From NCBI RefSeq assembly GCF_044324875.1, contig NZ_CP172188.1: a stretch of 64,000 nucleotides of DNA; one strand, given 5' to 3'. This DNA comes from Escherichia coli (GTDB taxonomy: Bacteria > Pseudomonadota > Gammaproteobacteria > Enterobacterales > Enterobacteriaceae). The position numbers were made by a program, and so were the translations under genes. How positions within the stretch are numbered: position 1 is the first letter of the stretch; every line of letters starts with the position of its first letter. This document shows, one piece after another, positions 7,001 to 53,705 of the stretch. The notes beneath the pieces are model-generated. The model had not been told where the DNA came from. It was given only the letters and a program-made list of their open reading frames with translations, and made no database searches.

Positions 7001-8012
7001 TGTTTCCCAGGAGTTTGAAAACTGGATGGCAGGGCGTGGTTTGTCCGGTCGCTCACTTAATAAAGTTACTTCTGAAGATATTCTTAGCCTGTTCCGTAAA
7101 CCGTCCGGAGAAGGGCTGGAATCTTTCTGGAAGACCGTGGTGGCATACCGTTTATTCCAGGGCAGGATGAAAGCCTTTAGCAACACTGATGACATTGAAC
7201 GGATGTTTAATCAGGTGAAGGCCGCGAAAATTACGGCGAAAATTGAGAAAACACGAGCTGCGCTGGTGGCCTGGCGCGATGCATTGTTTGAGCAATATAA
7301 ATCACTCAGCGATGCCGATGGCTGGTCGGCATTGGAGCAGCTGGCTAATAATGGTGTCGATGGAGCGAAATTAGCCATTGTTCAGGCCGATAATCCTCTG
7401 GATTCGCCAGCAGCGCAGTGGATTAAGGTGGGGGCTGTCATCAATGCATTTGATGAAAAACACATTAGTAAGGACGATTTTGCTGATGCTGTTTCTGTTA
7501 ATCGCCTGGTAGAAATGGCTACCCGTCGCGCCCGTGAGTTGAAAGACGGCGACTATGTGAATGAGTTGCCGGATGCGCTCAAATCGGCAACGTGGCAGGA
7601 CTATGTATCGCTGAAAAACGGCGGGGCCACTGAATCAGAGATCGCGGAAAGGCTTGAGCAGGCTGAAAGCAAAAGAGAAGAGCAGGCGGCAGTGGCTGAA
7701 TCCAGAGCTGATGAAGCGGCGAATGATGACTATATCATTGTGGTTAATGATAAGCCGATTCGCGCTAAGGCGCGTGTTCGCGGGCGCTGGTGGAGCGTCA
7801 GCGAAGACGTTGGCGCGGTTTATCTCATTGCCGACCAGCCAGGTTCCTCGACAATACGGAACGCCAAAGACGCGATTAAGAAGATTGGCGGGCGTTTCTG
7901 GAATTTTGAAGCAAACCCGGTTGCTGATGTGAACTTTGACCGTCCGGCATGGATGGTATCTACGCGTTACTCGGTAGATGAACTGCGTAAAATAATCGCC
8001 GATGCGGCCTAA
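1098..8012 (+). CDS. darB: DarB-like giant antirestriction protein (N6-adenine DNA methyltransferase + SF2/SNF2-like helicase)
   Basis: 2304 aa single ORF; SAM-binding motif LEPSAGTGIF, catalytic-type motif NVPFG; helicase motifs GFGTGLGKTTT (Walker A), DEGHNYRN (DEAH-like), QRNGRGARVG (motif VI); size and domain order match phage P1 DarB. Confidence 0.8.
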   Translation: MKITFSIPSQPYRIADFLRFRGGNPLDKLLHSISEASSLGELIEIVSRLHKLRAVATFGVKKVDGVSIQKTRRAANNAAVELLNSLPPGFDGAKLTDEQRQILAGYTGEGGLTDGEGSQYEYYTPQFMAEGIWDLFADYGIDGGHVLEPSAGTGIFQETKRQGMIMTSAELSPISGRINQLLHPEDDVNIGAFEALAAKDAMYDHAVGNVPFGEGRSGVAGLDPAYANEKNVGNYFVLRTIDKVKPGGLIVLVVPNGMTDGTKYKKLRDKVSRKAEFLGAHRMPSGTFSESGTDTVVDVWVLRKHPETFLEMIPDTDDATLKSANVLWDTFLKGKWFTTEGKRFVYGDMERTSFRNTLVVKKDGRVSNESMKNALSRRFESRINWDLLGVTTQAWQGAKVGDKRLVGGIWHEFDGLKWVKDATTKSSALDVNRYGVTTFGDLQIAFQSTNGILALSWDQISAIASDYPSVISDEVAAMIRFAGKQREKDRERVMRGALIGQLINKALDKRNLGENVDDELADAARLAEAEIAKYGPPHAIKLNGIAEAGAKNWMTFTGNVKQDGSASDLLAGRLDVTDGAAGIDFTRPEQVVTHLFSDVALNPITLDDFREAFAGELPEDEDAALEYLAKFDDIAIDGYGCLLPMDRATSGDIATKTALLVGWRDASTGEQKANFERQLAKIEEKRIFTPLNKVTVNLNARWLDRRLIKEFLAEQGYDEFKYTEPDLKVEDGILVSPDDYEGKDGVFTGYQLRTVNGKNGNEFKKANNKDGFLNQLENYLNGIKPRGQNANEYLDKIAQLEISFNDWLRTHPQADQIARDYNDAFNGFIPFTHSDAPLGLEGISGKRIPLTYQNEEVRRLSEDGRGIMGFGTGLGKTTTALALEAYNFETGRTKRTCIVVPKAVYQNWYHEAQSFYSADAFANMMFIGLDEVRDDSGNILTAPVLDENGEPRLDSNGQPLTRNVVKESASAVIVQRMNMIPSSNWRTVIMTKEQFASIPLREETIEENSQQAVFNAVEMGRLDLASGKHRDAQKKNKIKDQAANTGTTKKQNIPYFEDMNFDSVIADEGHNYRNSFSAGREAGQLAYLPNPAVSKMARDMAVKAAYMMKRNNGRGVVMLTATPLVNSPIDAFNMLSTVIPQEEWMRMGIVTPDDFVRVFGKTATVQVQKISGEVEEKQGLVGFQNLDGLRGIFHRWTTLKTAADVGATVKIPDIVENTLQIPMTGEQEAIYEELRKRAQELSSKDALTVDENGHITNEKPDDFIFSIIRDMDKVAIDPDLYASAITFQFPVELADKVKAIADALPKVAGGKVADDVDEAEEDGAGGLVSTRTSKVVKTTFSEHPSHVEIRAGIELEAEILKAIAAAGIDMQQVSHPIPPKYAALIENLREGLKNGKQIVFIDEKAQHQKLRRIIASALQMPEQEIGIINATTVSQAGGVKLKKVNKPTEPTPNKNGEYKEGAWETYYSKLAQYEDYLSAKNDAGLEGMEGIAADYNEGRTRIIICNKKAEVGINLHIGTTDIHHLTLPWTPASIDQRNGRGARVGSPQEKVNVHYYCGKGTFDDFRLDTLKRKKDWINMVMTSDMSEIANGDADDADERAIMLAANPEERRAIMSRQAQEREERLKLKALREANNALDNYLKAANAAGKDIGMMETELKSAMEQVEHYQRNLDDLIKAGTNRNGQKYVLEQLRDYRKRVRELRFAITRAKDADTVMKRSRGDLERAIKAGVLELDADVLQNPQEYVRTEKNILLHKGSHYRAIIDENHNTTAIVRVTAIDAERGGCTCRISWLDVASRYSRSPGTALFLPFNLIIESVTFEEGVAESRETAARGVQCHQLSTTLTRDQFYDAIRNGVMNVTAGKPSRVWGGGSAIKYWAYRTDDGQIALSSAYDGVIGQKIGRASDIAPERWIYPDGNDEALKREVAKIQASDNPLNVVDGEGFLQALYGYDYIQGMQAWGSQATMDDVSQEFENWMAGRGLSGRSLNKVTSEDILSLFRKPSGEGLESFWKTVVAYRLFQGRMKAFSNTDDIERMFNQVKAAKITAKIEKTRAALVAWRDALFEQYKSLSDADGWSALEQLANNGVDGAKLAIVQADNPLDSPAAQWIKVGAVINAFDEKHISKDDFADAVSVNRLVEMATRRARELKDGDYVNELPDALKSATWQDYVSLKNGGATESEIAERLEQAESKREEQAAVAESRADEAANDDYIIVVNDKPIRAKARVRGRWWSVSEDVGAVYLIADQPGSSTIRNAKDAIKKIGGRFWNFEANPVADVNFDRPAWMVSTRYSVDELRKIIADAA

Positions 8013-12451: not shown

Positions 12452-12528
12452 GATGGTGTAGCTCAGTAGGATAGAGCAGCAGCCTTCTAAGCTGTCGGTC
12501 GGTGGTTCGAATCCACCCACCATCGCCA
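12452..12528 (+). tRNA. tRNA-Arg (anticodon TCT)
   Basis: 77 nt; 7-bp acceptor stem GATGGTG/CACCATC, D-arm GCTC..GAGC, anticodon loop CTTCTAA, T-arm GGTGG TTCGAAT CCACC, encoded CCA. Confidence 0.9.
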
Positions 12529-12530
12529 AT

Positions 12531-12606
12531 GCCGGTTTAGCTCAGTTGGTAGAGCGCCTGCCTTGTAAGCAGGATGTCAGCGGTTCGAGTCCGTTAACCG
12601 GCACCA
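12531..12606 (+). tRNA. tRNA-Thr (anticodon TGT)
   Basis: 76 nt; acceptor GCCGGTT/AACCGGC, anticodon loop CTTGTAA, T-loop TTCGAGT, encoded CCA; P1 also carries a tRNA-Thr. Confidence 0.9.
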
Positions 12607-12608
12607 AC

Positions 12609-12694
12609 ACAACAGGTAAGGGTATTTTGCGACGTCGGAGATCGCCGTGCTTGGCAGAGGGTTCGAATCCCTACGAAGTACCCTTACCGTTGTG
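12609..12694 (+). other. tRNA-like remnant / structured element: 15-16 bp stem enclosing a T-loop-like GGTTCGAATCC
   Basis: ACAACAGGTAAGGGTA ... TACCCTTACCGTTGTG inverted repeat; no canonical D or anticodon arm identifiable. Confidence 0.25.
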
Positions 12695-13071
12695 ATGAAG
12701 TGCAGCTCTTTGAAGCAACCAGAAGATAAGCATCTGGCTTCACAACATAAACCGCAGGAACGACCAATAAACGGTAGTCCGTATGGAGAATACCCCGTTG
12801 AGGAAGAGGCCTGGCCGGAACCGTAACCGGCACTACAACGTTGAGAACACTGACGTAACGGGGTCATATCCCAATCTACGAATAAATGTTGCGTTGCAGC
12901 GTGACAACCAGTGTTCTCAACGTTGTGGTGGATTCGCAGACTGATGCGATAGCTTTCTTGGATGTTAGGGAAATGCGGCCGCAAACCTTCCCTTTCGCGA
13001 GCGGTGATCGTCCGTAGTCCTAATTGGCTGCACCGTATGCCGGAGATTCAGTACCGGCCACCACAACGGCC

Positions 13072-13158
13072 GGAGAGTAGGGAGCATGGTGCTCAAGCGG
13101 TCTTGAAAACCGTCCCATTGCGCAAGCGATGATGGTTCGATTCCATTACTCTCCGCCA
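13072..13158 (+). tRNA. atypical type-II (long variable arm) tRNA-like gene, anticodon possibly TGA (Ser-like); may be a pseudo-tRNA
   Basis: 87 nt; acceptor GGAGAGT/ACTCTCC, anticodon stem-loop GCGGT-CTTGAAA-ACCGT, T-arm GATGG TTCGATT CCATT, discriminator G + CCA; D-arm irregular. Confidence 0.4.
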
Positions 13159-13561
13159 TCGCAACGTTAAGAGTATTTGGCTAATTAAGCGAATGCCGGA
13201 AGCAGAACCGGATCAACAAATGCGTACAGGCGTCATCGCCGCCCAGCCAGCCAAGTGCTCTTACCATTGCGGTGAATGCGGCTAAGCGCACGCGGAACAG
13301 TTAAAACAATCCTGCTTACTAAACATCCCGGCGTTAATTGTTAACTGGTTAACGTCACCTGGAGGCACCAGGCACCGCAATCTAACAGCAATGGCGTTTT
13401 GTCTTAAAAGGTAGCTGCAAGTGATGGATTTTTGGGCCTTTGCCGATAAGAACCCTGGTTGGACATTTTTATTTCTGCTGGTGGTTGCATATGGGATCGA
13501 GCAAGCGGCAAAAGCCTTACGCGGTTCTGGCAAAAAGCGTAAGCGGAATTAACAGTAATCT

Positions 13562-13637
13562 GGCCCTTTAGCTCAGTGGTTAGAGCTGGCGACTCATAAT
13601 CGCACGGTCACCGGTTCAAGTCCGGTAGGGGCCACCA
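13562..13637 (+). tRNA. tRNA with CAT anticodon, most likely tRNA-Ile2 (lysidine type) rather than elongator Met
   Basis: 76 nt; GGCCCTT acceptor, anticodon loop CTCATAA, T-loop TTCAAGT; resembles enterobacterial ileX-type tRNA as I recall it; P1 also encodes a tRNA-Ile. Confidence 0.85.
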
Positions 13638-41530: not shown

Positions 41531-42286
41531 TTAACGCGTTTTTTCGCTGCTTTCCACTACCGGGGGATTTTTCCTCAGTGACTCTCCCTGAAGGACCACT
41601 CGGTGTGAGTTATGTACCAGTCTGTCCAGGATGGCATCTGCTGTTGTTGGGTTCTCCATCAGACCATGCCATTTATCTACCGGGAACTGGCTTACCACTA
41701 TCGTGCTGCTTTGTCCGTAACGATCCTCTATGAGCTCCAGAAGGTCATTACACTGGGCGTTACTTAACTGTTCCAGCCCCAGATCGTCCAGGATTAGAAC
41801 CTGTATTTTTTGCAACTGTTTCAGATATTTCAGCCAGCTGCCATCAACACGTCCCTGAGCCAGTTGTTCCAGTAATCGCCCGGTTCTACAGTACCGGACG
41901 CTGTGTTTCTGTCGACATGCCTGTTCGCCCAGCGCATTGGCTATCCAGCTCTTGCCACATCCTGTCGGACCGGTTATCAGCAGGTTTTTCCTGTGGGTTA
42001 TGTAGTGGCCGTTCAGCAGTTCTCTCATCTGTTCAGCCCGCAGACCTCTTGAGGCCGGATAGCGCAGCCCTTCCGGTGTTGCCTGGTATTTCAGGCCGGC
42101 ATTTTTTCTCAACCGTGCCACACGGCTGTTTTCCCTGCTCAGAAGCTCGTCATCAACCAGCAGCGTCAGCCTTTCCTCGAACGACAGTTCGTCGTAGGTC
42201 TGAGGCGTTTCCCGCTGCCGTATCAGGCTCCCGGCCATCGCCGGGAGTTTCAGTTGGGTCAGTTTGTTTAACAGGTTATCACTCAT
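41531..42286 (-). CDS. istB: IS21 helper ATPase IstB
   Basis: Walker A LLITGPTGCGKS, Walker B VLILDDLG; start set at MSDNLL. Confidence 0.88.
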   Translation of the reverse strand: MSDNLLNKLTQLKLPAMAGSLIRQRETPQTYDELSFEERLTLLVDDELLSRENSRVARLRKNAGLKYQATPEGLRYPASRGLRAEQMRELLNGHYITHRKNLLITGPTGCGKSWIANALGEQACRQKHSVRYCRTGRLLEQLAQGRVDGSWLKYLKQLQKIQVLILDDLGLEQLSNAQCNDLLELIEDRYGQSSTIVVSQFPVDKWHGLMENPTTADAILDRLVHNSHRVVLQGESLRKNPPVVESSEKTR

Positions 42287-42302
42287 ACTGTTGTTCCTTC
42301 TG

Positions 42303-43838
42303 TCAGTGGTAGTAGCCCGGACCACGCAGGTTTTCATGCTCTGAAGCATATGCCGGATGTTGTTCGCCCTGGCGGGATAATGGAAGCTCCAGGTTCTCCC
42401 GATGGTGACGCAGCAGATTGTCGATAAAGCGTCTGTCAGGGGCGTTATAGTGCAGGGCAACGTAACAGGCCTTTTCCAGCCGTTCCGGGCCGTATTTTTT
42501 CTGAAGTGCCAGCAGCCCCAGAACTGCACGATAAGCCAGTTCCGGATGGGGTTTTGCCTTCAGCATGGATTCAACCACCCGGCCTGTGGACGGGCCCGTA
42601 CGTTTTCCCTGCTCGATCAGGCGTTCCGGTGTCCATGTCCCGTGCTGCCGGTGGCGCTCTGGCATGTGAAGCGGATTGGTTGTGTGTTTATATTCATGTG
42701 TGCTGCGCGGATGTTGCGCCACACACTGCCCCTTGTGCCAGAGCTGTACCACCGACTGCCCCGCCTTCAGTGACAGACGCTGACCGACCAGTTCGTGTGG
42801 AACGGAGTACCAGTGACGGGCATATTCAACGTGGTAGTCAGGGCCAACCTTCACAGCTTTGTATTCCGTGTATTCATAAGGTGCCAGAGGCAGCGGAGAG
42901 AGTGCTGGCGCATCCAGTATGCGGAAGCGTTCTGCACGGGTTTGATTGCCGTACCCCTTCATTGGCCGGTTATTCATGTCTGTCAGTAACTCCCTAAGGC
43001 GCGCATTCAGCGCCCTGAGCGTGTGGAAGGTTTCATTACGGATGCGGGCAAGAAGCCATCGTTCAACGATGAGGACGCCGTTTTCTGCTTTTGGTTTATC
43101 TTTAGGTTTGCGTGGTCGGGCCGGGATGATAACCGTGCCATAGTGCTCAGCCAGTGCCTGATAACTGTCGTTGATGACAGGCTCATATCGATCGGCCTTT
43201 TTCACTGCGCTTCTGAGGTTATCGGGGATGAGCAGCTTCGGTACGCCGCCCAGGAAGGTCAGGCAACGGCTGTGGGCATTTAACCATGACATCATGTCCT
43301 GACCTTCGCACGCTTCAACGTAGGTATAGTTGGACGCCCCCATTACGGCCACGAAGATTGCCACGCGGCGTATCTCACCGGTGTCCGGATTAATAACAGG
43401 AACCGTAGGACCACAGAAGTCGATAAAAAGCTTTTCGCCGGCACGATGCTCCTGGCGCATGGAGAGACGTCGCGTTTTTTTCCACTCCCGGTAGCAACGG
43501 CAGAAGTGCGAGTATCCCATCGCTTTGTTACCCGCCTGTGCCTTGTATTCCATCCACAACAGTTGCCGCGTCACACCTGGTTTTCTCATTTCCGTATCGA
43601 AGTACAACATGTCAGGCATTACAAGCTCTGATGCAAAGGTGTCTTTGGGCGGAAAAATGAGTTTCTCCAGCGTGTCATGGGATATATCAGCAGGTAATGG
43701 CCATGACAGAGAAGAGGCTTTGAAGCGGGCAAGAACCTCAAAAACGGTTGAGGCGCTGATGTGTAACGTCAGTCCGATACAACGGTTAGTCAGCTTCTTG
43801 TCGAACTTGAGCTGAAGGATCTTAAAACAGGTTTCCAT
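42303..43838 (-). CDS. istA: IS21 transposase IstA
   Basis: 511 aa from METCFKIL; N-terminal HTH and DDE-type core. Confidence 0.85.
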   Translation of the reverse strand: METCFKILQLKFDKKLTNRCIGLTLHISASTVFEVLARFKASSLSWPLPADISHDTLEKLIFPPKDTFASELVMPDMLYFDTEMRKPGVTRQLLWMEYKAQAGNKAMGYSHFCRCYREWKKTRRLSMRQEHRAGEKLFIDFCGPTVPVINPDTGEIRRVAIFVAVMGASNYTYVEACEGQDMMSWLNAHSRCLTFLGGVPKLLIPDNLRSAVKKADRYEPVINDSYQALAEHYGTVIIPARPRKPKDKPKAENGVLIVERWLLARIRNETFHTLRALNARLRELLTDMNNRPMKGYGNQTRAERFRILDAPALSPLPLAPYEYTEYKAVKVGPDYHVEYARHWYSVPHELVGQRLSLKAGQSVVQLWHKGQCVAQHPRSTHEYKHTTNPLHMPERHRQHGTWTPERLIEQGKRTGPSTGRVVESMLKAKPHPELAYRAVLGLLALQKKYGPERLEKACYVALHYNAPDRRFIDNLLRHHRENLELPLSRQGEQHPAYASEHENLRGPGYYH

Positions 43839-43941
43839 AGTGCTCCTGGATTTTCTCTTTCTGGACATTGACGTCTCCACTGGTTTAAACACGGCAATGG
43901 AGACTGTGGTGAAAAGAGTTAATTCCCGGAGTGACTGGCAG

Positions 43942-44060
43942 GATGCCAATCAATGATCGGAAGCATGCCAAATCGTGATCGATTGTGATGCCAAACTGTG
44001 ATCGGAGATGGATGCCAAATCATGATCGATTCGAATGCCAAACTGCGATCGATTCAGATG
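43942..44060. repeat. five tandem ~23-bp repeats at the IS21-family end
   Basis: GATGCCAATCAATGATCGG / CATGCCAAATCGTGATCG / GATGCCAAACTGTGATCGG / GATGCCAAATCATGATCG / AATGCCAAACTGCGATCG. Confidence 0.7.
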
Positions 44061-44281
44061 CCATTTTGCAGCCAAATTTCTGTCAAAAAATAAAATCCAC
44101 AAAAAGTGGTTGACACTATTTTGGAAATCACAAACTGCACATAATCCATCGCGCTAACGGCTCCCGTTGAAGGTTCTTTTGACGATTAACTTTCAGCCGA
44201 AGCGCGGTAGGGAGTCATAACGCCAAAGCAGGCCGCCATGTGCGGCCTTTTTTTGTATCCGTCATCCGTGGAGGAAGGACA

Positions 44282-44935
44282 ATGGAAAAGATCGCAATAT
44301 TCAGCCTGACCACCAGCAAGCCTCAAATGCTCACTGCAATACTGAAAGACGGTGCTCTCATTATTAACGAAGTAAAACCCCTTCCCGCGTCAGCATTGGA
44401 GCAAAAGCAAAAAATTCCTCCAGCTATAGCAGCCCTGCGGAAAAGCAAATTTAAGGTACTGGTAGACGAAATTACGCCAACGATCTCCGCTGGCACCGGA
44501 GCAAGCCAGGTTACTCTCAAGACCCGTCATGCCGATGGCAGAGCAGCAATCATCGTCGGGATGGAAAGATACAGAGAGTTAAAACTCCAGAAGCTATTAT
44601 CCCTGCCGCAAAATAACAAAGGTGCTTTCGAAATCCCTGACTCCATCGTTGACACCGAATACAACGGTAACGGAGAAGAAGTCTACCGGGTGAACTGGCA
44701 GGATATCAGGCCGGAACATATTCTGATGGTCCTGTGTTGCTACGCGACCGTATACCACAACGTTGCCAGTGCAGATTACGTAGAGCAGATGACCGGCACA
44801 GTCGAGAAAGAGCAAAAAACAGGCATACTCGCTTCGTTCCTGTCCATTATTGGGCATGAAAAAGTTGAAGCAGGCACCTCCCAGCCAAAGTCACTGGCTG
44901 GGAAAGAAGTTGATGAAGATACCGTGATACTTTGA
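44282..44935 (+). CDS. hypothetical protein
   Basis: ORF 44240..44935; start set at MEKIAIF. Confidence 0.45.
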   Translation: MEKIAIFSLTTSKPQMLTAILKDGALIINEVKPLPASALEQKQKIPPAIAALRKSKFKVLVDEITPTISAGTGASQVTLKTRHADGRAAIIVGMERYRELKLQKLLSLPQNNKGAFEIPDSIVDTEYNGNGEEVYRVNWQDIRPEHILMVLCCYATVYHNVASADYVEQMTGTVEKEQKTGILASFLSIIGHEKVEAGTSQPKSLAGKEVDEDTVIL

Positions 44936-45271
44936 TCACATTAGTAGCTTTGTTAACTCCCTCAATACCAGGTAGAAGAGTAACAAAAACACTGACGTGG
45001 ATACCTGCTGAGTTAAAGAAGCACTAATGAATTTATTCAATAAATCAATCAGCTTATTAAAAATATTCATCTTTTCGAATCCATTCGATCGGTAAATAAC
45101 ACCCAGCTCACTATCGAGCTGGTCCACGCCTTAAGATTAATGAAAGTCACTTGTTGACAGTCAATAAATTCCAGGGTGGCGAAAAAACTCTGTCTATACG
45201 GATAGTGCTTGCATTTTACTCTTTCTGCGTGTAGCGTATATACACAGGTTGCACGCACGAATGGAATTATT

Positions 45272-45553
45272 TTGATTAAGTCATTTCGCCATAAAGGGCT
45301 TGAACGCTTTTTCAAGACAGGTTCAACCGCAGGCATTCAGGCCAAACATGCGGTTAAGCTACGCATTCAATTGACTGCGCTTAATACAGCTAAACGCCCG
45401 GACGATATGTCTGCGCCTGGATGGGAATTGCACCCTCTAAAGGGGGCGGACCTTAAAGGTCACTGGGCAATATCGGTAAACGGTAACTGGCGACTTACCT
45501 TCCGATTTGAAGGAGAAGACGCAATTCTAGTTGACTATCAGGATTATCATTGA
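45272..45553 (+). CDS. higB: HigB-family toxin (RelE/ParE superfamily, killer-protein type)
   Basis: TTG start; [13 protein letters not shown] ... WELHPLKG ... [21 protein letters not shown]. Confidence 0.75.
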
Positions 45554-45561
45554 GGAACACT

Positions 45562-45843
45562 ATGAGTCGTATGCATAATCCCGCGCATCCAGGCGCGGTT
45601 CTTCGTGAATATTTGGGAGACATGTCAGTCACAGACGCCGCTGCGGCATTAGGCATTACTCGCACGGCGCTTTCCCGAATTCTGAATGAAAAAGCAGGTA
45701 TATCTGCTGATATGGCACTTCGTCTGGAGTCCGCTCTTGGAACCAGTGCCGAAATGTGGACCGGTATGCAATCCCAGTATGAGCTTTGGGTTGCTTCGCA
45801 AACCACTCGCCCAAACATCCGTCCATTATTTTTCCACGCATAA
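45562..45843 (+). CDS. higA: HigA-family antitoxin (XRE HTH)
   Basis: GAGGA RBS; [44 protein letters not shown]. Confidence 0.75.
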
Positions 45844-45935
45844 TTTCACAGCGTCACCAGGCCTGGTGACGCTGCTTTCTCGCATTTCACACCCTGCATA
45901 CAGTTTTCCCCAGGTTATGACTGAGGGGCTTTGTT

Positions 45936-46265
45936 ATGGGCTATAGCAGACTCGACGATAGGTACATTGAAGACGATATTTTTCGTGCGCTGTTTCACCA
46001 GGAAATGATTAAGCGGGTATCGGAGTATCACTCTGATAATTTCCAGTACACGATAAAGATTGATGAAGTATATCGTTCAGACCTTGCAGCCTACAGGGCG
46101 TATGGCAATGCAGATTTGCGCTGGGTATTCCGGGTGCTGGTGGGCCATGAGTCAGAAATGGAAGAAATGCCCGCCGGGACCACGTTAACTCTTCCTGATG
46201 TGGCATGGCTGAGGAATAAGATCCGTGATTACGCGAGCGCGGAACCGGAGATAGAAAATGCCTGA
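45936..46265 (+). CDS. hypothetical protein
   Basis: 109-aa ORF. Confidence 0.4.
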   Translation: MGYSRLDDRYIEDDIFRALFHQEMIKRVSEYHSDNFQYTIKIDEVYRSDLAAYRAYGNADLRWVFRVLVGHESEMEEMPAGTTLTLPDVAWLRNKIRDYASAEPEIENA

Positions 46266-47448
46266 TTTCCTGAAAAACCAGGACGGGCGCTATATCACTG
46301 ACGGCCTGTCCTCTAAGGACTTCACGCGTTTATTCGACCTTATCAGGAAAGAACAAACCCGTAAGCGCCGGCAAGCTCACCGGACGCTGACGCCAGGTAG
46401 ACTGAGGAACAAATCCGCCGAAGATATTCTCAAGTTAGGGAAGAAAAAAGGCGGCACGTTCTTCACGCGAGACGACCTGAAAGGTTTCGAAAAGCTACGG
46501 AGTAAAACGCGCGAAAAATATGACAGCAAGACGGCTGGCATCACATACGCCCAGCTGGTGGCATCCAGCCAGGCAATCGATATTAAGCGTGCAAATAACG
46601 CCGTGGATGACGGATCTGGTATCAAAAGAGCTACACCCGTATCTCTTCGCCACAATGTGATTAATATCCGCGTAGAAGCATCGGATATATCCGTCCACCA
46701 GCACCATATCGTCCGGATACGCTTTGAAGAATGGGATCAGATGGTTGATGATATCGCAGAAGACGATAAATCAGCTCTCAAAATCACTAAATCACTGTGC
46801 GCCGGGCGAGTGTCTTTCGATTGTGACTGTGGTCGTCATCAATACTGGTATCGTTACATCGCCACTGCGGGTAACTTTGCCCTGGCACCGCCAAAAGAAT
46901 ACGCCTATCCAAAAGTTCGCAACCCGAAGCTGCAAGGCGTCGCCTGTAAACACGTGATCCACTCAATGACGCGGTTACAGTCCGCCAGTTGGCAAATGAG
47001 TATTGCTCGTGCGCTACAAAAGGCTGCAACGCAAATTGCATTTGGTGACGATCGCCGCCGTACAACCAAACACTTCTCAAAAGAAGACGAGAAGGAGTTT
47101 AATCGCAATCGTAGCAGTAAAACAAACGTTGAAGCCGCCAAACGCGAATGGAGGCTCTATCAGAAGCGCCAGGCAGCTTTAAGTACAAAACTGGCAAAGG
47201 ACAACGGCAATATCGACAAGCTACGTGACCAATTGACCAGGGCCAGAAAGTTGTCAGACGCACAGAAAAAACGGGCGGCTGCAAAAGAAGCGGCCTTGCA
47301 ACGTGAGAAACAGAAAAATAAGGAACTTCAGCAACGCCTTGCCGATCAGTTCGCACTGAAGAAGCAGGCGTTCATTGATGCGCTTGTCATGGCTGGAACA
47401 CCACCAGCACAAGCTGAAAAAATGTTCATGGAGTACATAAAAAATTAA
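46258..47448 (+). CDS. hypothetical protein with SWIM-like zinc-finger motif and basic coiled-coil C-terminus
   Basis: 396 aa; C-x-C ... C-x-H pattern in FDCDCGRHQYW ... ACKHVIH. Confidence 0.45.
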   Translation: MPDFLKNQDGRYITDGLSSKDFTRLFDLIRKEQTRKRRQAHRTLTPGRLRNKSAEDILKLGKKKGGTFFTRDDLKGFEKLRSKTREKYDSKTAGITYAQLVASSQAIDIKRANNAVDDGSGIKRATPVSLRHNVINIRVEASDISVHQHHIVRIRFEEWDQMVDDIAEDDKSALKITKSLCAGRVSFDCDCGRHQYWYRYIATAGNFALAPPKEYAYPKVRNPKLQGVACKHVIHSMTRLQSASWQMSIARALQKAATQIAFGDDRRRTTKHFSKEDEKEFNRNRSSKTNVEAAKREWRLYQKRQAALSTKLAKDNGNIDKLRDQLTRARKLSDAQKKRAAAKEAALQREKQKNKELQQRLADQFALKKQAFIDALVMAGTPPAQAEKMFMEYIKN

Positions 47449-47459
47449 CAAAGGTGGGT

Positions 47460-48200
47460 TTATCCCACCTTTTTATTAGCATCGCATTTAATTTTTTCAA
47501 GTGAATCAGAAAGCTTTGAGAGAATCTCCTCAAGTGTCTCCCTGTCATTTGTATCACCCGAACGAAAAGATGAGTTTTTCACGGCAGTAAAAAATTCATA
47601 AAAATCATCCAACGAATTTAAGCTCTCACCTTTCTCTCTATATAATTTAATAACATGACGGATATCGCTATCCACACATTCAATCTGTTCCCTAACTTCT
47701 TCTACCTTTCTTTTTAATGATTCATGTTCTTCTTTTTCTTTTTCAAGACGCTCTTCAACGTCTTTCCGTTTCTTAGTAAGATCATTAATGTCTCTGTTAA
47801 TTTTTCTTACTTGTTCTTTTTTGTCTTCAATTTTATCTATCTCTCTCAATTTAGCGTATATTGTGCCAGTCACCATAGAAATTAGTAAAGTTAACATTGG
47901 GGCTAATATTGAAGCCACAACACCATAAATAAAAGGCAAGACAAAATGAGCTACGAATGAGGGTACAAAAACATTCCCAAATAATGGAATCTTTTCCCCA
48001 ACAAACACCATAGATAATGTATACATAACATCATCTTTTGACTTCAACAATATAAATATATCTCGCCAGTTAGAAATTAAAAATGAAATAAAAATGTAGG
48101 CAAAAACCTTATTAAACAACTTATCTTTTACAGCATCTTCTATCAGATTTTGGGCGGATGATTTTTCATTTTCCTTTTCTATTGATGAATCAGTGCTCAT
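47460..48200 (-). CDS. membrane protein with cytoplasmic coiled-coil domain (AT-rich cargo)
   Basis: 246 aa; transmembrane stretches (FAYIFISFLISNW; FVAHFVLPFIYGVVASILAPMLTLLISMV) then E/K-rich heptad region. Confidence 0.5.
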   Translation of the reverse strand: MSTDSSIEKENEKSSAQNLIEDAVKDKLFNKVFAYIFISFLISNWRDIFILLKSKDDVMYTLSMVFVGEKIPLFGNVFVPSFVAHFVLPFIYGVVASILAPMLTLLISMVTGTIYAKLREIDKIEDKKEQVRKINRDINDLTKKRKDVEERLEKEKEEHESLKRKVEEVREQIECVDSDIRHVIKLYREKGESLNSLDDFYEFFTAVKNSSFRSGDTNDRETLEEILSKLSDSLEKIKCDANKKVG

Positions 48201-48260
48201 ATAATCACCAAATATTTAAACCTTGATTTTATGTAAAATCGGCCCTCCAGACTGCCAAAC

Positions 48261-48641
48261 TTAAACACCAACTAGGCTTTCAAGAGGAATGCCAAACTGG
48301 GAATGTAAACGACGAATCATAGGTAACGTTAAATTTCGTGTCCCATTTAGCACTTCGTAAACACGATTTGACTTACCAATCGCCGGTTCCAGATCCTTCA
48401 CGGTCAACCCTTGCTATTCCATACGGGATTTAATGGCTTCAATAGGTGATGGCGGCTCAATTGGGTAATGTTTTTTCTCGTACTCCTCAATGAGAAGACA
48501 CATAACCTCCAAGAAATTACCTTCCGGGGTGTTCGTTTCCGGTTCGTTATCGAACATCGGTTCTACCGCACGCAGTGCGGCCTCATAATCTTGTTCTGTA
48601 CGGATAGTTTTAATGTTCATTAATTCCAAAGGAAAGCCCAC
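48261..48641 (-). pseudogene. HigA-type antitoxin homolog interrupted by an in-frame amber codon
   Basis: N-terminal part (48414..48641) then TAG at 48414..48416, same frame continues QGLTVKDLEPAIGKSNRVYEVLNGTRNLTLPMIRRLHSQFGIPLESL (HTH), parallel to E. coli HigA LTLSDLPEIGSKSMVSRVLSGKRKLTLEHAKKLATRFGISPALF. Confidence 0.5.
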
Positions 48642-48676
48642 TTGTTAAGTGGGCTTTTTGTATGTGTTTTACTATA

Positions 48677-49015
48677 TCAGGCTGCTTTTTTATTCAGGTT
48701 CCGCTGAGAAATAAATTTTTCAGCAGTATTGATACGACTTAACTCTTCCTGAACGCGCATGTCATTTTCGACTTCCCACAGGTCTACTGCGGTCTGGAGA
48801 TTAATCCAAAAATCTACAGAAGTATCGAATGCTTTTGCCAGGCGATATGCCATATCCATCGTTAGCTTACGATTATTATTAACAAGAGCACTTACGGTGT
48901 TACGATGAACATGAAGTATTTCTGCTAACTCGTTGATCTTCAGCTCTAACGGCTCCAGGTATTCGTACAGCAGGATATCACCTACGGTCGTCGGTTTTCT
49001 GGTTGCCTGTTTCAT
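48677..49015 (-). CDS. higA: HigA-family antitoxin (XRE HTH)
   Basis: VGDILLYEYLEPLELKINELAEILHVHRNTVSALVNNNRKLTMDMAYRLAKAF. Confidence 0.75.
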   Translation of the reverse strand: MKQATRKPTTVGDILLYEYLEPLELKINELAEILHVHRNTVSALVNNNRKLTMDMAYRLAKAFDTSVDFWINLQTAVDLWEVENDMRVQEELSRINTAEKFISQRNLNKKAA

Positions 49016-49085
49016 TTTTTGCCCTTACTAGCGTGCGTATTAAGTGGACTCTGGTCAGAACCCGGTCCGTAACCGGGTATCTGTT

Positions 49086-49388
49086 TTAGTATTTGTGAGG
49101 GTCGAGATACAAGTCCTCGGCCTTTCCGTTAACCCACTTAAAAATTAACCTATATTGCTTATTCACCCTTACTGATGAATAGCCATTTAGCTTCCCTGAC
49201 AGTTCCTCATACCGATTACCTGGTGGTGATCTTAAATCCTTACAGGTAGTTGCGGCATTGATAATGTCCAACTTCCGTGACAATGTCATATGAATATCAG
49301 GAGGTATCTTTCTATGTGGTGTTGAAAATTCAAAAAAATCATCAAGCCACGCATCCCTGAAATCCTTTATGTTAATTTTTTTGGTCAT
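49086..49388 (-). CDS. higB: HigB-family toxin (RelE/ParE superfamily)
   Basis: DLRSPPGNRYEELSGKLNGYSSVRVNKQYRLIFKWVNGKAEDLYLDPHKY. Confidence 0.75.
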   Translation of the reverse strand: MTKKINIKDFRDAWLDDFFEFSTPHRKIPPDIHMTLSRKLDIINAATTCKDLRSPPGNRYEELSGKLNGYSSVRVNKQYRLIFKWVNGKAEDLYLDPHKY

Positions 49389-49550
49389 TAGTCATTTGAT
49401 CCTCCGTGATGATTACCGAATGCCATAACTATAGCGCACTGTTGCACTGTGCGCAAGTGCATTTTATGAATTCCCCCTCCTTCATCCAAAATCACAATCT
49501 CCCGAAAATCTTCCTTTCGATACCTGACAGATCGACCTTTGAGGATGCTT

Positions 49551-50342
49551 ATGGGCCGTTTTGACGAATGGTTTGCTGACGATGCAAACCTGGCAAGTAA
49601 GGAGTCAGAACATGACAGCACGCAGAGAGAAACGCCAGCACCGATTGAAGCGAATGCAGGAGGCGCGCCGGAACATGGCAATACCGGTTCGGATTCATTC
49701 AGCATTCTGGAAGAGCAACCCGCCGCCAAAGCTGATAGCCATGATAATTTTGCTGATAGCAACGGTGGCCTTACTTCGGATGCTGGCGAATCAGATATAG
49801 CCATACTTCCATCTTCCCTGGCTGGCAGAGAACCGACTCCACAGTTAAAAGCACGCTATAACGGGCATAAAGCCTTTAACGACCAAATCCGCGCAGACTG
49901 GATGCTGATTATTGAATCCAGCCCAGACGCGTTTCAGGCTCTCTTATATCGACCAGATGTTGGCACATATGGGGTAGTCAGCGACGAAACAGGAGAAGAG
50001 TCATTCACCGAACTGGATAACAACCAACGCGAACTGACTTACCAGGAACCTGAAATCGTTTATGTGCTGGATAACCCTGACGGGCGTGACTCTTTCCATG
50101 CGATTGACGCAGACGGTGAGCAGGATGGCTTAACCGATGATGTTCTGATTCTGCGTATTGCAGCAAATAACGTCCCCGTCGGCTCAATTCTTGAATGGAA
50201 TGAAGAGATGGTAAACGGCGTAGCGCGCCGCTGGTGGTACGTGCACCGTATTTTTAGCTACGGCACACAGCATGTTGGTTCGCTTTACTACTGCATACCT
50301 GCCAGGAATTTTGATACGACTCAAAACGGAGTGATCGAATGA
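49551..50342 (+). CDS. hypothetical protein, possibly virion/baseplate-associated
   Basis: ORF 49539..50342 with start at MGRFDEW (GAGGATG RBS); first of four overlapping genes ending in a gpV-like spike. Confidence 0.4.
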   Translation: MGRFDEWFADDANLASKESEHDSTQRETPAPIEANAGGAPEHGNTGSDSFSILEEQPAAKADSHDNFADSNGGLTSDAGESDIAILPSSLAGREPTPQLKARYNGHKAFNDQIRADWMLIIESSPDAFQALLYRPDVGTYGVVSDETGEESFTELDNNQRELTYQEPEIVYVLDNPDGRDSFHAIDADGEQDGLTDDVLILRIAANNVPVGSILEWNEEMVNGVARRWWYVHRIFSYGTQHVGSLYYCIPARNFDTTQNGVIE

Positions 50343-51106
50343 CTTCAAATAAAACCCTCCTGGCGCGAACAGGTGAATGGCAAACCTCACGCACAGGAAA
50401 ATTCCAGACCACGGGCTTTGAAAACGTGGATAACGCGTTTGCGACGCTAATCAGCAACATTTTTTCTGATATCTTACTGGTGGCCCCCGCGCCGGAAGAA
50501 AAACGCTTTGCGTCATTCCTGAATCGTCCACCAGCAGAGCGTGTCTATGTGGCCCGTTTCGACAATGCGATCGAGTTTCTTAAAGCAGTTCGTCGCGCAA
50601 ATGCCGGGCAAGGGAGAAAACCTGAAAACCAGAACATTAACCGGGATGCTCTCCCCCTGGTCAATATCTCACGCAATATGGATATCAATTATATCAACGA
50701 TGATCAGCAGATTGACCGCAAAAAAGTAGCCAGTTTTTGCGAACCGGATACCGGAATGCCTTTAGCAGAACTGGAATACACCCAGGCCATTCTGACGTAT
50801 GACGTTACGTTAATGGCAACTGATAAAGCGACCATGAGTCTGATGTGTAATTCGCTGGGCGCACGGCTTCGCCTGATGACAGGTACACAATTTGAAGCAA
50901 CCACTCACCTTGTTCGTGTCCCGGTCCCGCTGATTAGCTCGATACAGGATGCCAAAGAAGTCGGCTTTACGGATGTTTCAGCACCAATTGGAGAAGAGCG
51001 TATTTATGCCACACAAGCGCCGATAAGTGTGATTGCAGACGTGATCACAGCATGGGAGTTGGACGCAAAACGTATTATTACCGAAACCTCGATATCTATG
51101 GGGTGA
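50339..51106 (+). CDS. hypothetical protein, possibly baseplate-associated
   Basis: 255 aa; ATGA overlap with upstream gene. Confidence 0.4.
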   Translation: MTSNKTLLARTGEWQTSRTGKFQTTGFENVDNAFATLISNIFSDILLVAPAPEEKRFASFLNRPPAERVYVARFDNAIEFLKAVRRANAGQGRKPENQNINRDALPLVNISRNMDINYINDDQQIDRKKVASFCEPDTGMPLAELEYTQAILTYDVTLMATDKATMSLMCNSLGARLRLMTGTQFEATTHLVRVPVPLISSIQDAKEVGFTDVSAPIGEERIYATQAPISVIADVITAWELDAKRIITETSISMG

Positions 51107-51109
51107 TAA

Positions 51110-52090
51110 GTGGCCCAGGAGTTACAACAATATTTTCTACAGTCAGTGCTCATTAACGATAACAAAGTGCCACGAGACTGGATTTTTACCGCAGTATATG
51201 TAGAAAAAACCAGCCTCAAAGCCCCTTTGCTAAAACTGGAAATTCATGACGCTACCGGCACCGTAATTGATGACTGGAAAGCCAAATACGGTGCATCGCT
51301 GGTGGCTGAAATGGGCGATCCAAACGGTAATGCAGGCACTTTTAAAACAGATTTCTTTGTTACGTCTGCAATGCTGGCTGGTGATGTTGTTACCGTTATT
51401 GCTGTCAGTGAAGACGTGCGCAGGTTTAAGATCCCCTCCCCGCGCACAAATTTACATACCAACAAAACACCAGACGCTATATTCAAGGCATATTCCGGCA
51501 AGCTTAAAATTACCAGCAGCGTGCTAAAACGCGCAGTTACATATCATCTGAATGCCGGTGACAAACCGTCAAAAATGCTTTCGGAGATAGCGCGAGACAA
51601 AGGTGCATTATGTTGGGTATGCCGGGGGGAATTTAACTTTTACACCCTGGATGATCTGATGAAGCAAACGCCATCATTTACCTACGAGGGGAATAACCCT
51701 AAAGCAGAATACACTTTGTCCAAAATGCGCCTACTCCAACAGGAACATGCGACAACAGCAAAGAATCAATATCGTTTTGTTGGGTATTCCATGACCGATG
51801 GCTACGTCGAATATGGCGATAGCTCACTCCCAGTGCGTTATATATCCGACTCTGATATGGAAACTCTTCGCAATATGCAGCTGTCTCTCGTCCCCAAAAT
51901 GGATATAGAAGTCGCAGGCAATCCGGATATAAAACCGGGAATGGTAATAGAGATTATCGTATACCGCTATGACCAGGAAAACCGCATTGATGAATCAATG
52001 CCCCGCAAGCTGATAGTAAAAAATGTTGCGCACTTTGAAGACCGCGTAGGCTACACAACACGAATGATATTAGGAGTGCCGAACAAATGA
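51110..52090 (+). CDS. putative baseplate hub (gpD / gp27-like) protein
   Basis: 326 aa immediately upstream of the gpV-like spike; assignment by position and size. Confidence 0.35.
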   Translation: MAQELQQYFLQSVLINDNKVPRDWIFTAVYVEKTSLKAPLLKLEIHDATGTVIDDWKAKYGASLVAEMGDPNGNAGTFKTDFFVTSAMLAGDVVTVIAVSEDVRRFKIPSPRTNLHTNKTPDAIFKAYSGKLKITSSVLKRAVTYHLNAGDKPSKMLSEIARDKGALCWVCRGEFNFYTLDDLMKQTPSFTYEGNNPKAEYTLSKMRLLQQEHATTAKNQYRFVGYSMTDGYVEYGDSSLPVRYISDSDMETLRNMQLSLVPKMDIEVAGNPDIKPGMVIEIIVYRYDQENRIDESMPRKLIVKNVAHFEDRVGYTTRMILGVPNK

Positions 52091-52740
52091 AGCGTAGAGC
52101 GCAAATTGTTGGAACTGTGCACCCGGCAGGGCTTATGCGTGCTCAGGTCCGTGTTTTACCAGACTGGAATGGCGTTCCTGATGACGATCTACCCTGGGCA
52201 GAATACCTGTTACCCATAGGTAACGCGTTTGTACCTACAGTAAAAGGCGACCTGGTATGGGTAGAGTTTCCTTATCTGGATGTTAATGGTCGAATTGATA
52301 CCAGACGCCCAATGATAGTTGGCGCAGCTCAGGATGCGCCTGGCGGAGTACCAAACGTCGCGCCGGAGGCGTCAGGCAATGGTAGCGGCTGGACGCCACC
52401 AGAAGTAGACGGAGCGCCTCCCCGCCCGCAATTTTCGGCGACAAAAGATTTCGTGATTCACCGCAACAATGTGCTCGAAGTGCGAACGGCTGGCGGTGGA
52501 TATGAAATAGCGAATACGGCAGCAGGCTCAAGGATTGGAATGAATGAATCAGGGCAGATATACATCATTGGTCCGGCTGATGTAGTAGTGAATGCGGGAG
52601 GGAGTGTTAACGTCAAATCAGCCGATAACATCAGCGTTAATGGCAAAAACATTACTGTGACAGCCGACGAAAATATTGATTTCAAGGCTGGAGGCACCTT
52701 CCAGGCTATCGCAAGCAACTTTGATTTCAAGAAGGGATAG
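52087..52740 (+). CDS. baseplate spike protein (gpV / Mu gp45-like OB-fold)
   Basis: N-terminal GTVHPAGLMRAQVRVLPDWNGVPDDDLPWAEYLLPIGNAFVPTVKGDLVWVEFPYLDVNG resembles gpV family. Confidence 0.55.
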   Translation: MKRRAQIVGTVHPAGLMRAQVRVLPDWNGVPDDDLPWAEYLLPIGNAFVPTVKGDLVWVEFPYLDVNGRIDTRRPMIVGAAQDAPGGVPNVAPEASGNGSGWTPPEVDGAPPRPQFSATKDFVIHRNNVLEVRTAGGGYEIANTAAGSRIGMNESGQIYIIGPADVVVNAGGSVNVKSADNISVNGKNITVTADENIDFKAGGTFQAIASNFDFKKG

Positions 52741-52750
52741 AAAACACATC

Positions 52751-52792
52751 CAATTGTGTTAGATAATTGAACAGAATTTTCTAACACAATTG
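52751..52792. promoter_or_regulatory. palindromic operator-like site upstream of rdgC
   Basis: CAATTGTGTTAGA ... TCTAACACAATTG, perfect 13-bp inverted arms. Confidence 0.6.
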
Positions 52793-52799
52793 GTGAAAC

Positions 52800-53705
52800 A
52801 TGAGATCAGTCGCTTTCAAAAACATCTTCATCTATCGTCTTTCACGTGAAGTTAACTGGAGTGCCGCAGAAGTATCCGATGCTCTTAGCAAATTCGTGTT
52901 TACTCCTTGCGGTTCTCAGGACACAGCTAAAGTCGGTTGGACACCTGTTCTTGGTGACAACCTCACCCATGAATACCAGGGTTTTCTGCTAATACAGCAT
53001 AAGCGAGAAGAAAAAATTCTCCCCTCGCAGGTGCTCAAGGAAGAGTTGCAGAAAAAAGTCCTGAAACTCGAAGAAGAGCAAGCCCGCAAGCTGAAGAAAA
53101 CGGAAAGAGACAGTCTTAAAGATGAAGTCCTGCATTCCCTTTTGCCTCGCGCGTTCACGAGAAAATCACTCGCCAAAATCCTGATCGACCGCAGCAACCA
53201 TCTGGTATTCGTTGAGGCAAGCAGCGCCAAAAAGGCAGAGGACCAGCTGGCTTTATTGCGAAAATCGCTCGGCAGCCTGCCTGTCATTCCATTCACACCA
53301 CGCGAACCGCTGGAAATTACAATGACCGAGTGGTTTAAAAACGGCTTCCCTGCCGGATTTACAGCAGGTGAAGACGCCACATTAAAGGGTCTGCTCGATA
53401 ATGGTGGTGCCGTTCGCTGCAACAAAGTTGATCTACAGTCCGACGAGATTATGTCTCACATTGAGGCGGGGAAAGTAGCTACGACCGTTGCAATTAACTG
53501 GATGGAACGCGCGTCGTTCAGAGTCAACGATGATATGAGTATCAAAGCCCTGACATTCTGTGATGATCTCTATGACCAGAACGACGATATCGACCGGGAG
53601 GATGTAGCACAACGATTTGATGCTGATTTCGTGCTCTTTACGGGCGAATTATCTGCACTGTTTAACGCGCTGGTGGAGGCCATTGGCGGTGAAGCAGAAC
53701 GATAA
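52800..53705 (+). CDS. rdgC: RdgC recombination-associated protein
   Basis: 301 aa; near-colinear with E. coli RdgC ([61 protein letters not shown]). Confidence 0.9.

Follow-up and report, generated by a model that had tools for sequence, protein, structure and literature searches.

A HigA-type antitoxin gene, probably stranded by cassette exchange, carries an amber codon in the cargo hotspot of a D6-like phage-plasmid of Escherichia coli

In a stretch of 64,000 nucleotides from Escherichia coli (contig NZ_CP172188.1 of assembly GCF_044324875.1; hereafter, the window), a gene for a HigA-type antitoxin on the minus strand contains an in-frame amber codon and is followed by an AT-rich gene. This raises the question whether the stop codon belongs to a decaying toxin-antitoxin or abortive-infection module or to a gene regulated by readthrough, both of which had been suggested by a first-pass annotation made from the sequence. 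The TAG which it reported was read directly on the minus strand (...CGT ATG GAA TAG CAA GGG TTG ACC GTG AAG...); it is in frame with an ATG at 48620 and with the part encoding the helix-turn-helix (HTH) domain, which ends at the TAA at 48261..48263. The gene end formerly placed at 48641 had to be moved, as it is a mechanical GTG start of the open reading frame, and the ATG at 48620, annotated as the start in relatives, is the true one. The features of the locus are listed in Table 1.

Table 1. Features of the cargo hotspot and its flanks, in window coordinates.
Feature	Position	Strand	Basis
Left flank, tail protein, homologue of P1 gene 25	46258..47448	+	D6 orf74 annotation, 99% aa identity
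Hairpin resembling an intrinsic terminator	47450..47472	-	9-bp stem with 5 GC pairs, then GTTAATTTTT (terminator scan)
Membrane-anchored coiled-coil protein, 246 aa, intact	47460..48200	-	phrog_8191, E 1e-74
higA2 pseudogene, E. coli K-12 HigA (YgjM)-type, 119 codons	48261..48620	-	phmmer to PDB HigA 5IFG/5YCL
Amber codon, CAG (Gln69) to TAG	48414..48416	-	Alignment; identical in IMG/VR contig L011/L013
13-bp hairpin between higA1 and higA2	48631..48659	.	Terminator scan
higA1, HigA antitoxin cognate to higB1, 112 aa, intact	48677..49015	-	TIGR02607 antidote_HigA + HTH_3
higB1, RelE/ParE-type HigB toxin, 100 aa, intact	49086..49388	-	PF05015 HigB-like_toxin, E 4e-35
Right flank, tail protein, homologue of P1 gene 7	49539..50342	+	D6 orf69 annotation, 99% aa identity

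The product of higA2, with the stop codon repaired, was matched by phmmer to the HigA chains 5IFG_B and 5YCL_A with an E-value of 6e-9 over residues 6-112, and its residues 63-115 match the Pfam family HTH_3 (26.1 bits, cut-off 23). The layout, a toxin-binding domain at the N-terminus and an Xre/HTH_3 domain at the C-terminus, is that of HigA of the E. coli K-12 YgjM type; its reading frame in the window is interrupted at codon 69. HigA2 also matches phrog_1373 and the first 119 positions of the PADLOC profile PD-Lambda-2_B. Since the HTH_3 match starts at residue 63, the stop falls six residues into it and lies inside the first HTH helix. The N-terminal domain and the HTH are thus in the same frame, as had been described, but the stop lies within helix 1 and not between the two domains. 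Full-length orthologues of 119 aa are found in D6 and in many plasmids. Aligned with orf72 of phage D6 and with two plasmids of E. coli, the gene shows the lesion to be one C-to-T change; codon 69 is CAG in phage D6, in each of the 18 further full-length D6-like alleles that were compared and in all lambdoid alleles. Because the amber codon interrupts helix 1 of the HTH, higA2 of the window is a pseudogene.

The element in the window is a D6-like (P1-like) phage-plasmid. Escherichia phage D6 and some 100 phage-plasmids from E. coli, Salmonella and Shigella share 92-93% nucleotide identity with the region and have the same flanking genes. The gap which separates the gene-25 homologue from the gene-7 homologue (tail genes, P1 naming) is a cargo hotspot; in the window, four minus-strand genes (higB1, higA1, higA2 and the gene for the 246-aa membrane protein) are located between the two plus-strand tail genes. 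Four cassette sets were found here: the membrane gene with higA2, higA1 and higB1 (D6 and the window), the same set with the membrane gene missing, higB2 and higA2 with the membrane gene, and higB2 and higA2 with nothing else. The terminator-like hairpin overlaps the stop codon of the membrane gene, faces the 3' end of the gene-25 homologue and marks the end of the cargo unit. At the other side, higB1 and higA1 form an addiction module of the PF05015/TIGR02607 kind, in which the genes are adjacent with the toxin first. Both reading frames are intact, as the first-pass annotation had it, and both products score above the curated cut-offs (HigB1 against PF05015, 120.5 bits, cut-off 27; HigA1 against TIGR02607, 102.5 bits, cut-off 47.7); HigB1 is 100% identical to D6 orf70. 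The 13-bp hairpin sits at the 3' edge of this incoming cassette, 10 nt short of the higA2 ATG; it is found in D6 and is missing from the higB2-type locus. Its T-run is on the plus strand, so for the coding (minus) strand it would be a weak terminator at best.

In other elements, higA2 has a different upstream neighbour. A trio of higB2, higA2 and the membrane gene is present in pF374-2, two Enterobacter phage-plasmids, a Klebsiella IncFIB plasmid and many IMG/VR contigs. HigB2 is a 'HigB family toxin' of 100-103 aa, whose gene is located upstream of higA2 and abuts or overlaps it in pF374-2, the IMG/VR loci L014-L019 and L049, an ENA contig (L062), Enterobacter and the Klebsiella IncFIB plasmid. 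HigB2 scores 117 bits against PF09907, has a match in the solved HigB of E. coli and is the canonical partner of K-12-type HigA; in pF374-2, it is WP_021551810. A PF09907 higB upstream of higA2 was confirmed in, among others, pF374-2, L014-L019 and L062. Many lambdoid prophages contain a higB2-higA2 pair (~90% at the amino acid level) beside the immunity region, without the membrane gene, and therefore the pair is a self-sufficient two-gene toxin-antitoxin system. The trios of E. coli and Enterobacter have diverged in parallel (26%, 29% and 32% identity), and the trio has been transferred as a block into the Klebsiella plasmid.

When the window is aligned with pF374-2, the two sequences cease to be homologous some 90 nt from the gene-7 side; they become so again at the higA2 ATG or a few bases before it, where the right-hand breakpoint of an exchange would be placed. 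The swap took out higB2, a promoter-like region (TTTACA, 17 nt, TACTAT) and two TCCCA-N3-TGGGA palindromes, one of which sits inside the promoter spacer upstream of higB2 in pF374-2. From this position we infer that the palindromes are the HigA2 operator. In the window, no exact copy of the palindrome was found and matches with one mismatch are at chance level (3 versus 2.0 expected), and an autoregulatory operator of the YgjM type was not detected for higA2. The genes upstream of higA2 in the window encode HigB1 of PF05015 and HigA1 of TIGR02607 instead of a cognate PF09907 HigB; the HigB2 toxin gene is missing from the locus, and no copy was detected in the 10 kb searched (43001..53000). Because the swap removed the toxin gene and the palindromes, higA2 is orphaned in D6 and in the window. 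The ancestral hotspot would have carried, on the minus strand, the promoter with the two palindromes, higB2, higA2 and the membrane/coiled-coil gene. In the D6 lineage, recombination would then have put an unrelated, self-contained higB1-higA1 cassette with its hairpin in place of promoter, palindromes and higB2, which left higA2 without operator-like palindromes nearby and, presumably, without a cognate toxin to neutralise.

The fate of higA2 after the exchange was followed in 60 loci analysed locally. These loci are phylogenetically non-independent and the three lesion types represent only three independent events, so the contrast between orphan and cognate copies is suggestive and falls short of statistical rigour: next to higB2 (34 loci), 33 copies are full length and one has a 1-nt deletion in an A-run (L050), whereas next to higB1-higA1 (23 loci) the gene is intact in 9 loci, carries the amber codon in 2 genomes, is frameshifted by a 1-nt insertion at about codon 53 in one locus (L054) and is reduced to a 66-aa ORF in 11 loci, its 3' half having been swapped for a different membrane-gene cassette. 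The 66-aa form explains phrog_10398, a profile of 66 positions which matches only HigA2 residues 1-64. For the D6-like higA2 copies, pN/pS was calculated pairwise after Nei-Gojobori and is 0.01 beside higB2 versus 0.09 in the orphans (0.14 for the orphan N-terminal domain). The allele of the window has ten private changes, i.e., P5T, M29T, D35N, F37L, F65S, Q69* and four synonymous ones. In the N-terminal domain, five non-synonymous and two synonymous changes were counted, compared to none and two in the HTH-coding part; for the N-terminal domain, this looks like relaxed constraint. The intact orphan alleles are still constrained, as their pN/pS of 0.09 is far from about 1. Either the orphaning is recent, or the intact copies may keep a function, for instance neutralising the HigB2 of competitors.

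Taken together, we consider it likely that higA2 was orphaned by the cassette swap and subsequently hit by a nonsense mutation in the course of ordinary decay, the membrane gene being an independent accessory. Relaxed selection on the orphan would have allowed separate lineages to inactivate it by separate routes. In the lineage of the window, a C-to-T change would have turned Gln69 into an amber codon in HTH helix 1, after five private amino acid changes in the toxin-binding domain. The decaying toxin-antitoxin module proposed at first is borne out as far as the antitoxin is pseudogenised, but the partner was wrong: the lost toxin would be the upstream HigB of PF09907, which was replaced by another higBA. 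For annotation, higA2 of the window should be labelled a pseudogene, and the 66-aa ORFs of phrog_10398 are to be regarded as truncated HigA remnants. The novelty is low, since this is another instance of an already known type of event. The locus provides a small, clean example of a cassette exchange in a phage-plasmid hotspot that strands an antitoxin gene, which is then decayed differently by different lineages. The intact orphan copies may be anti-addiction genes directed against competitors with HigB2.

It has to be considered whether the two halves of the interrupted gene are still useful. The N-terminal domain of 68 aa might neutralise HigB2 without binding DNA and thus act in anti-addiction, or the HTH part might be re-initiated at a GTG at 48401, 12 nt after the TAG. 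The amber codon and the 3' replacement, which arose independently, both leave a similar N-terminal part of 63-68 residues as an ORF, and targets exist in the near-identical higB2-higA2 pairs (~90%) of the many lambdoid prophages. An AAGGG motif is found 6 nt upstream of the GTG, and the HTH part is free of private amino acid changes, although the numbers (0 non-synonymous, 2 synonymous) are small. Against a useful N-terminal fragment, all five private amino acid changes fall into just this domain in the ratio of 5:2 that resembles relaxed constraint, and the frameshift of L054 lies within it. A protein started at the GTG would be without helix 1 of the HTH_3 fold, and the swap has removed the original ribosome-binding context. 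Retained use of either half is therefore judged unlikely, and decay of an orphan remains the preferred explanation.

The gene downstream of higA2 is AT-rich, as first noted: its GC content is 32%, compared to 49-50% in the tail genes on either side and 48% in the window as a whole. Its product had been described as a membrane protein with a long coiled coil. The coiled coil is supported by an AlphaFold2 model (pLDDT 79), which predicts one helix at residues 81-189 with the membrane segment running on into a charged coiled coil. Regarding the membrane part, a single hydrophobic segment is unambiguous (residues 81-113, uncharged, Kyte-Doolittle mean over 19 residues up to 2.1), and a weaker one is found at residues 31-52. 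The hydrophobic segments are followed by a highly charged helix and then by two more helices. A profile search against 1.8 billion representatives gave 96 relatives, 31 of them with an E-value ≤ 1e-10. Conserved in the family are an N-terminal motif, (K/R)D(K/R)L-N...Y...S...NW...I(L/I).KS..D, and a second segment, HF.LP...G..AS...P..T, while the coiled coil is highly variable and mosaic. Membership of this reading frame in a characterised non-toxic family would have spoken against the module proposed by the first-pass annotation; phrog_8191 is the only family which was matched in Pfam, NCBIfam, PADLOC and PHROG profiles, and no named family was. Matches to SMC, Rad50, JetC and LmuB were discarded as compositional, sub-threshold coiled-coil noise. 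A Foldseek search against PDB and BFVD did not yield a match of the fold at E ≤ 0.001, and no literature was found by protein accession or PHROG id.

Could this membrane protein be the toxin of higA2, so that both genes form a two-gene toxin-antitoxin or abortive-infection pair, either decaying or de-repressed by the broken antitoxin? The genes are neighbours on one strand with 60 nt between them; in every D6-like locus with the membrane gene, it is located downstream of a HigA-type gene, and it has moved together with higBA into the Klebsiella IncFIB plasmid. An obligate co-occurrence of antitoxin and membrane gene was, however, not observed. The membrane gene is intact beside truncated, frameshifted or amber higA2 in at least 14 genomes, which is hard to square with a toxin that is not neutralised, and it is missing from three loci (L003, L015 and L016) where the toxin-antitoxin genes remain. 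In L019 and L021 it is itself truncated, and in Klebsiella plasmids IS903B splits it. Each of the five distant homologues inspected stands alone behind 350-680 nt of upstream intergenic DNA, and none has a HigA or HigB neighbour. They are located between gpV and gpS in P2-like prophages or, in islands, beside DUF4942/DUF1173/H-NS, a WYL regulator or an AAA_13 ATPase. Since these homologues stand alone, the membrane protein is not the toxin of HigA2, whose canonical cognate toxin is HigB2. The pairing implied by the first-pass annotation is thus very improbable.

Apart from its neighbour higA2, the membrane gene would be an autonomous accessory, which is kept, swapped and diversified on its own account. 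Its product would most likely be a prophage-encoded membrane factor, for example a phage-exclusion or abortive-infection protein. More specifically, the phrog_8191 family (about 96 representatives) might constitute a hitherto undescribed single-gene factor of phage exclusion or abortive infection, a proposal that we put forward as rather doubtful. The family is widespread in cargo sites of prophages, such as the gene 25-7 gap of P1/D6 and the gpS-gpV gap of P2; it is AT-rich, mosaic and diverges fast, and can reasonably be regarded as a candidate phage-exclusion protein of a new kind. The parallel divergence of the trio and its block transfer to Klebsiella favour a looser functional link to HigBA. 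Given its parallel divergence with the HigB-HigA pair, the membrane protein might be a third component of a defence unit linked to toxin-antitoxin genes, comparable to the three-gene systems PD-lambda-2 and CmdTAC. If so, orphan or broken higA2 copies would be the mark of a repeated rewiring of this unit.

The occurrence of the amber allele bears on the remaining explanations. No 100% match was found among 5,426 complete genomes of E. coli or 72,556 plasmids (PLSDB), where the best match reaches 95.6% (4 mismatches over 91 nt). In IMG/VR, a pattern search retrieved the 86.6-kb contig IMGVR_UViG_2681813421_000002 (L011/L013), which matches the window over 47113..49825 without a single mismatch. 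The sequence flanking this 2.7-kb tract differs by about 1-2%, and by up to 16% farther out, and the segment 44997..45872 is structurally different. Therefore, one amber allele is present in two different backbones. Three other IMG/VR matches to the 17-mer pattern (L009, L010 and L012) are unrelated chance matches.

Readthrough, the other suggestion made at first, would make the TAG a regulatory element, with full-length HigA2 produced only by means of a suppressor or a near-cognate tRNA-Gln. UAG is read as Gln in supE-type hosts and, rarely, by near-cognate tRNA-Gln. As the replaced residue is Gln, either would restore wild-type HigA2, and residual full-length protein would come only from such low-level reading or from a supE-type host. 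In addition, the TAG is followed by C, and a GlnRS-like gene is present on the element, which is treated as a coincidence. A programmed stop is opposed by its lack of conservation, as it occurs in one lineage only, CAG being found in the 18 other D6-like alleles and in every lambdoid allele, and by its rarity in the genomes and plasmids searched. A suppressor tRNA was not found in the window, where the four tRNAs are Arg-TCT, Thr-TGT, Ser-TGA and Met-CAT, none with a CUA anticodon. In sister lineages, the same gene was destroyed by deletion and frameshift. Programmed or host-dependent readthrough is thus extremely unlikely. A sequencing or assembly error, named at the outset as what could undo the finding, would fit a TAG that differs by one base from every close relative that the curated collections contain, but its probability is close to negligible in view of nine further private substitutions in the same allele and of the identical allele in an independent contig with another backbone. 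Because this independently assembled phage-plasmid contig carries the same allele, the amber codon is genuine and no read error.

Among known systems, HigB-HigA of E. coli K-12 (YgjN-YgjM; PDB 5IFG, 5YCL and 6KML) is similar in several respects. HigA2 aligns with HigA over nearly the full length and has the same layout, HigB2 of the relatives matches the solved HigB and belongs to PF09907, and the toxin gene precedes the antitoxin gene, which it overlaps or abuts. HigA2 is the shorter protein (119 aa versus 138 aa) and shares only about 30% identity; the window lacks the cognate toxin and the promoter, and its antitoxin gene has the amber codon.

Orphan antitoxins and anti-addiction modules are toxin-less chromosomal or plasmid antitoxins which neutralise incoming toxins. 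Similarly, many lineages have kept higA2 although the toxin is gone, with some purifying selection left (pN/pS 0.09), and HigB2 toxins compatible with it are carried by related phage-plasmids and lambdoid prophages. In the window, by contrast, higA2 is inactivated.

The anti-phage system PD-lambda-2 consists of a HigB-like protein, a HigA-like protein and a third, accessory gene product (Vassallo et al. 2022, PMC9519451). PD-Lambda-2_B is the top PADLOC match of HigA2 (E 4e-42). In this system, B is a HigA-like HTH protein fused to a C-terminal peptidase of the ImmA/IrrE type, and C is similar to a P4 antitoxin (PMC9519451). HigA2 ends at residue 119 without a peptidase domain, and the third gene here encodes a membrane coiled-coil protein, unlike the P4 antitoxin-like protein. 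Membership in PD-lambda-2 was rejected because HigA2 covers only the HigA-like N-terminal positions 1-119 of the 402 positions of the B profile.

The comparison with phage D6 itself (orf70-orf73, MF356679) and with D6-like plasmid prophages of E. coli and Salmonella concerns the same hotspot. D6 orf72 is intact with CAG at codon 69, in contrast to the amber codon of the window, and D6 orf73 is only 42% identical to the membrane protein of the window. Two 'HigA family' genes are annotated at the hotspot in the D6 record. The gene order is the same and HigB1 and HigA1 are identical, and for D6-like prophages higA-higB has been described as a post-segregational killing system (PMC6799933).

Over 47113..49825 the window and the phage-plasmid contig L011 (IMGVR_UViG_2681813421_000002), which carries the same amber-interrupted higA2 allele, were compared without a single mismatch in 2.7 kb, and this tract includes the entire cargo unit. 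The flanks of the tract diverge by 1-2%, and at 52000..53100 divergence climbs to 11-41 mismatches per 250 nt. The comparison suggests that the cargo cassette was recently moved between backbones by recombination and that the tail region downstream is hypervariable.

The membrane/coiled-coil gene (47460..48200) was compared with its relatives. In the membrane proteins of P0008 and L019, residues 1-44 are of the window type and the remainder is sequence of the type found in L018. The membrane proteins are thus mosaics; the N-terminal membrane part is conserved and the coiled coil is exchanged or diversified. Two distant solitary homologues (loci L068 and L070) are adjoined by scraps encoding the final 23-28 residues of a P1 gene-25-like tail protein (57-70% identity, E ~1e-4), and homologue and scrap are convergent, as in the window. 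The membrane gene may accordingly move together with a fragment of its phage-plasmid flank.

In pF374-2, which keeps the ancestral higB2-higA2-membrane gene trio, two perfect palindromes, TCCCAGCATGGGA and GTCCCATATTGGGAC, are located 5' of higB2 (L008:2196-2246, +), the second of which occupies the whole 17-nt spacer between TTTACA and TACTAT. Both are candidate HigA2 operators.

A third toxin-antitoxin pair lies inside the segment 44997..45872, which is unaligned in the otherwise close relative L011; pF374-2 carries this same pair (PF05015 toxin and HTH_3 antitoxin). A very long ORF (1098..8012, +), encoding 2304 aa, occupies the beginning of the window.

Further features of the window and of the loci of distant membrane gene homologues
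Feature	Position	Strand	Evidence
Four-tRNA cluster (Arg-TCT, Thr-TGT, Ser-TGA, Met-CAT)	12452..13637	+	tRNA genes
IS21-family element	41531..43949	-	IstA-like transposase and IstB-like ATPase
IstB-like ATPase of this element	41531..42529	-	204 bits
IstA-like transposase of this element	42303..43949	-	rve and Mu-transpos_C_2
HigB-like toxin, third pair	45251..45553	+	PF05015, 74.8 bits
Antitoxin, third pair, 3' of toxin gene	45562..45843	+	HTH_3
Class I Glu/Gln tRNA synthetase-like protein, 553 aa	55316..56977	-	tRNA-synt_1c, 433 bits, and both anticodon-binding domains
Gene-25-like tail scrap, directly 3' of solitary homologue	L068:4297-4365	-	translated similarity
Gene-25-like tail scrap, directly 3' of solitary homologue	L070:3707-3790	-	translated similarity

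A glnS gene has been reported on D6-like prophages (PMC6799933), and the synthetase-like gene of the window agrees with it.
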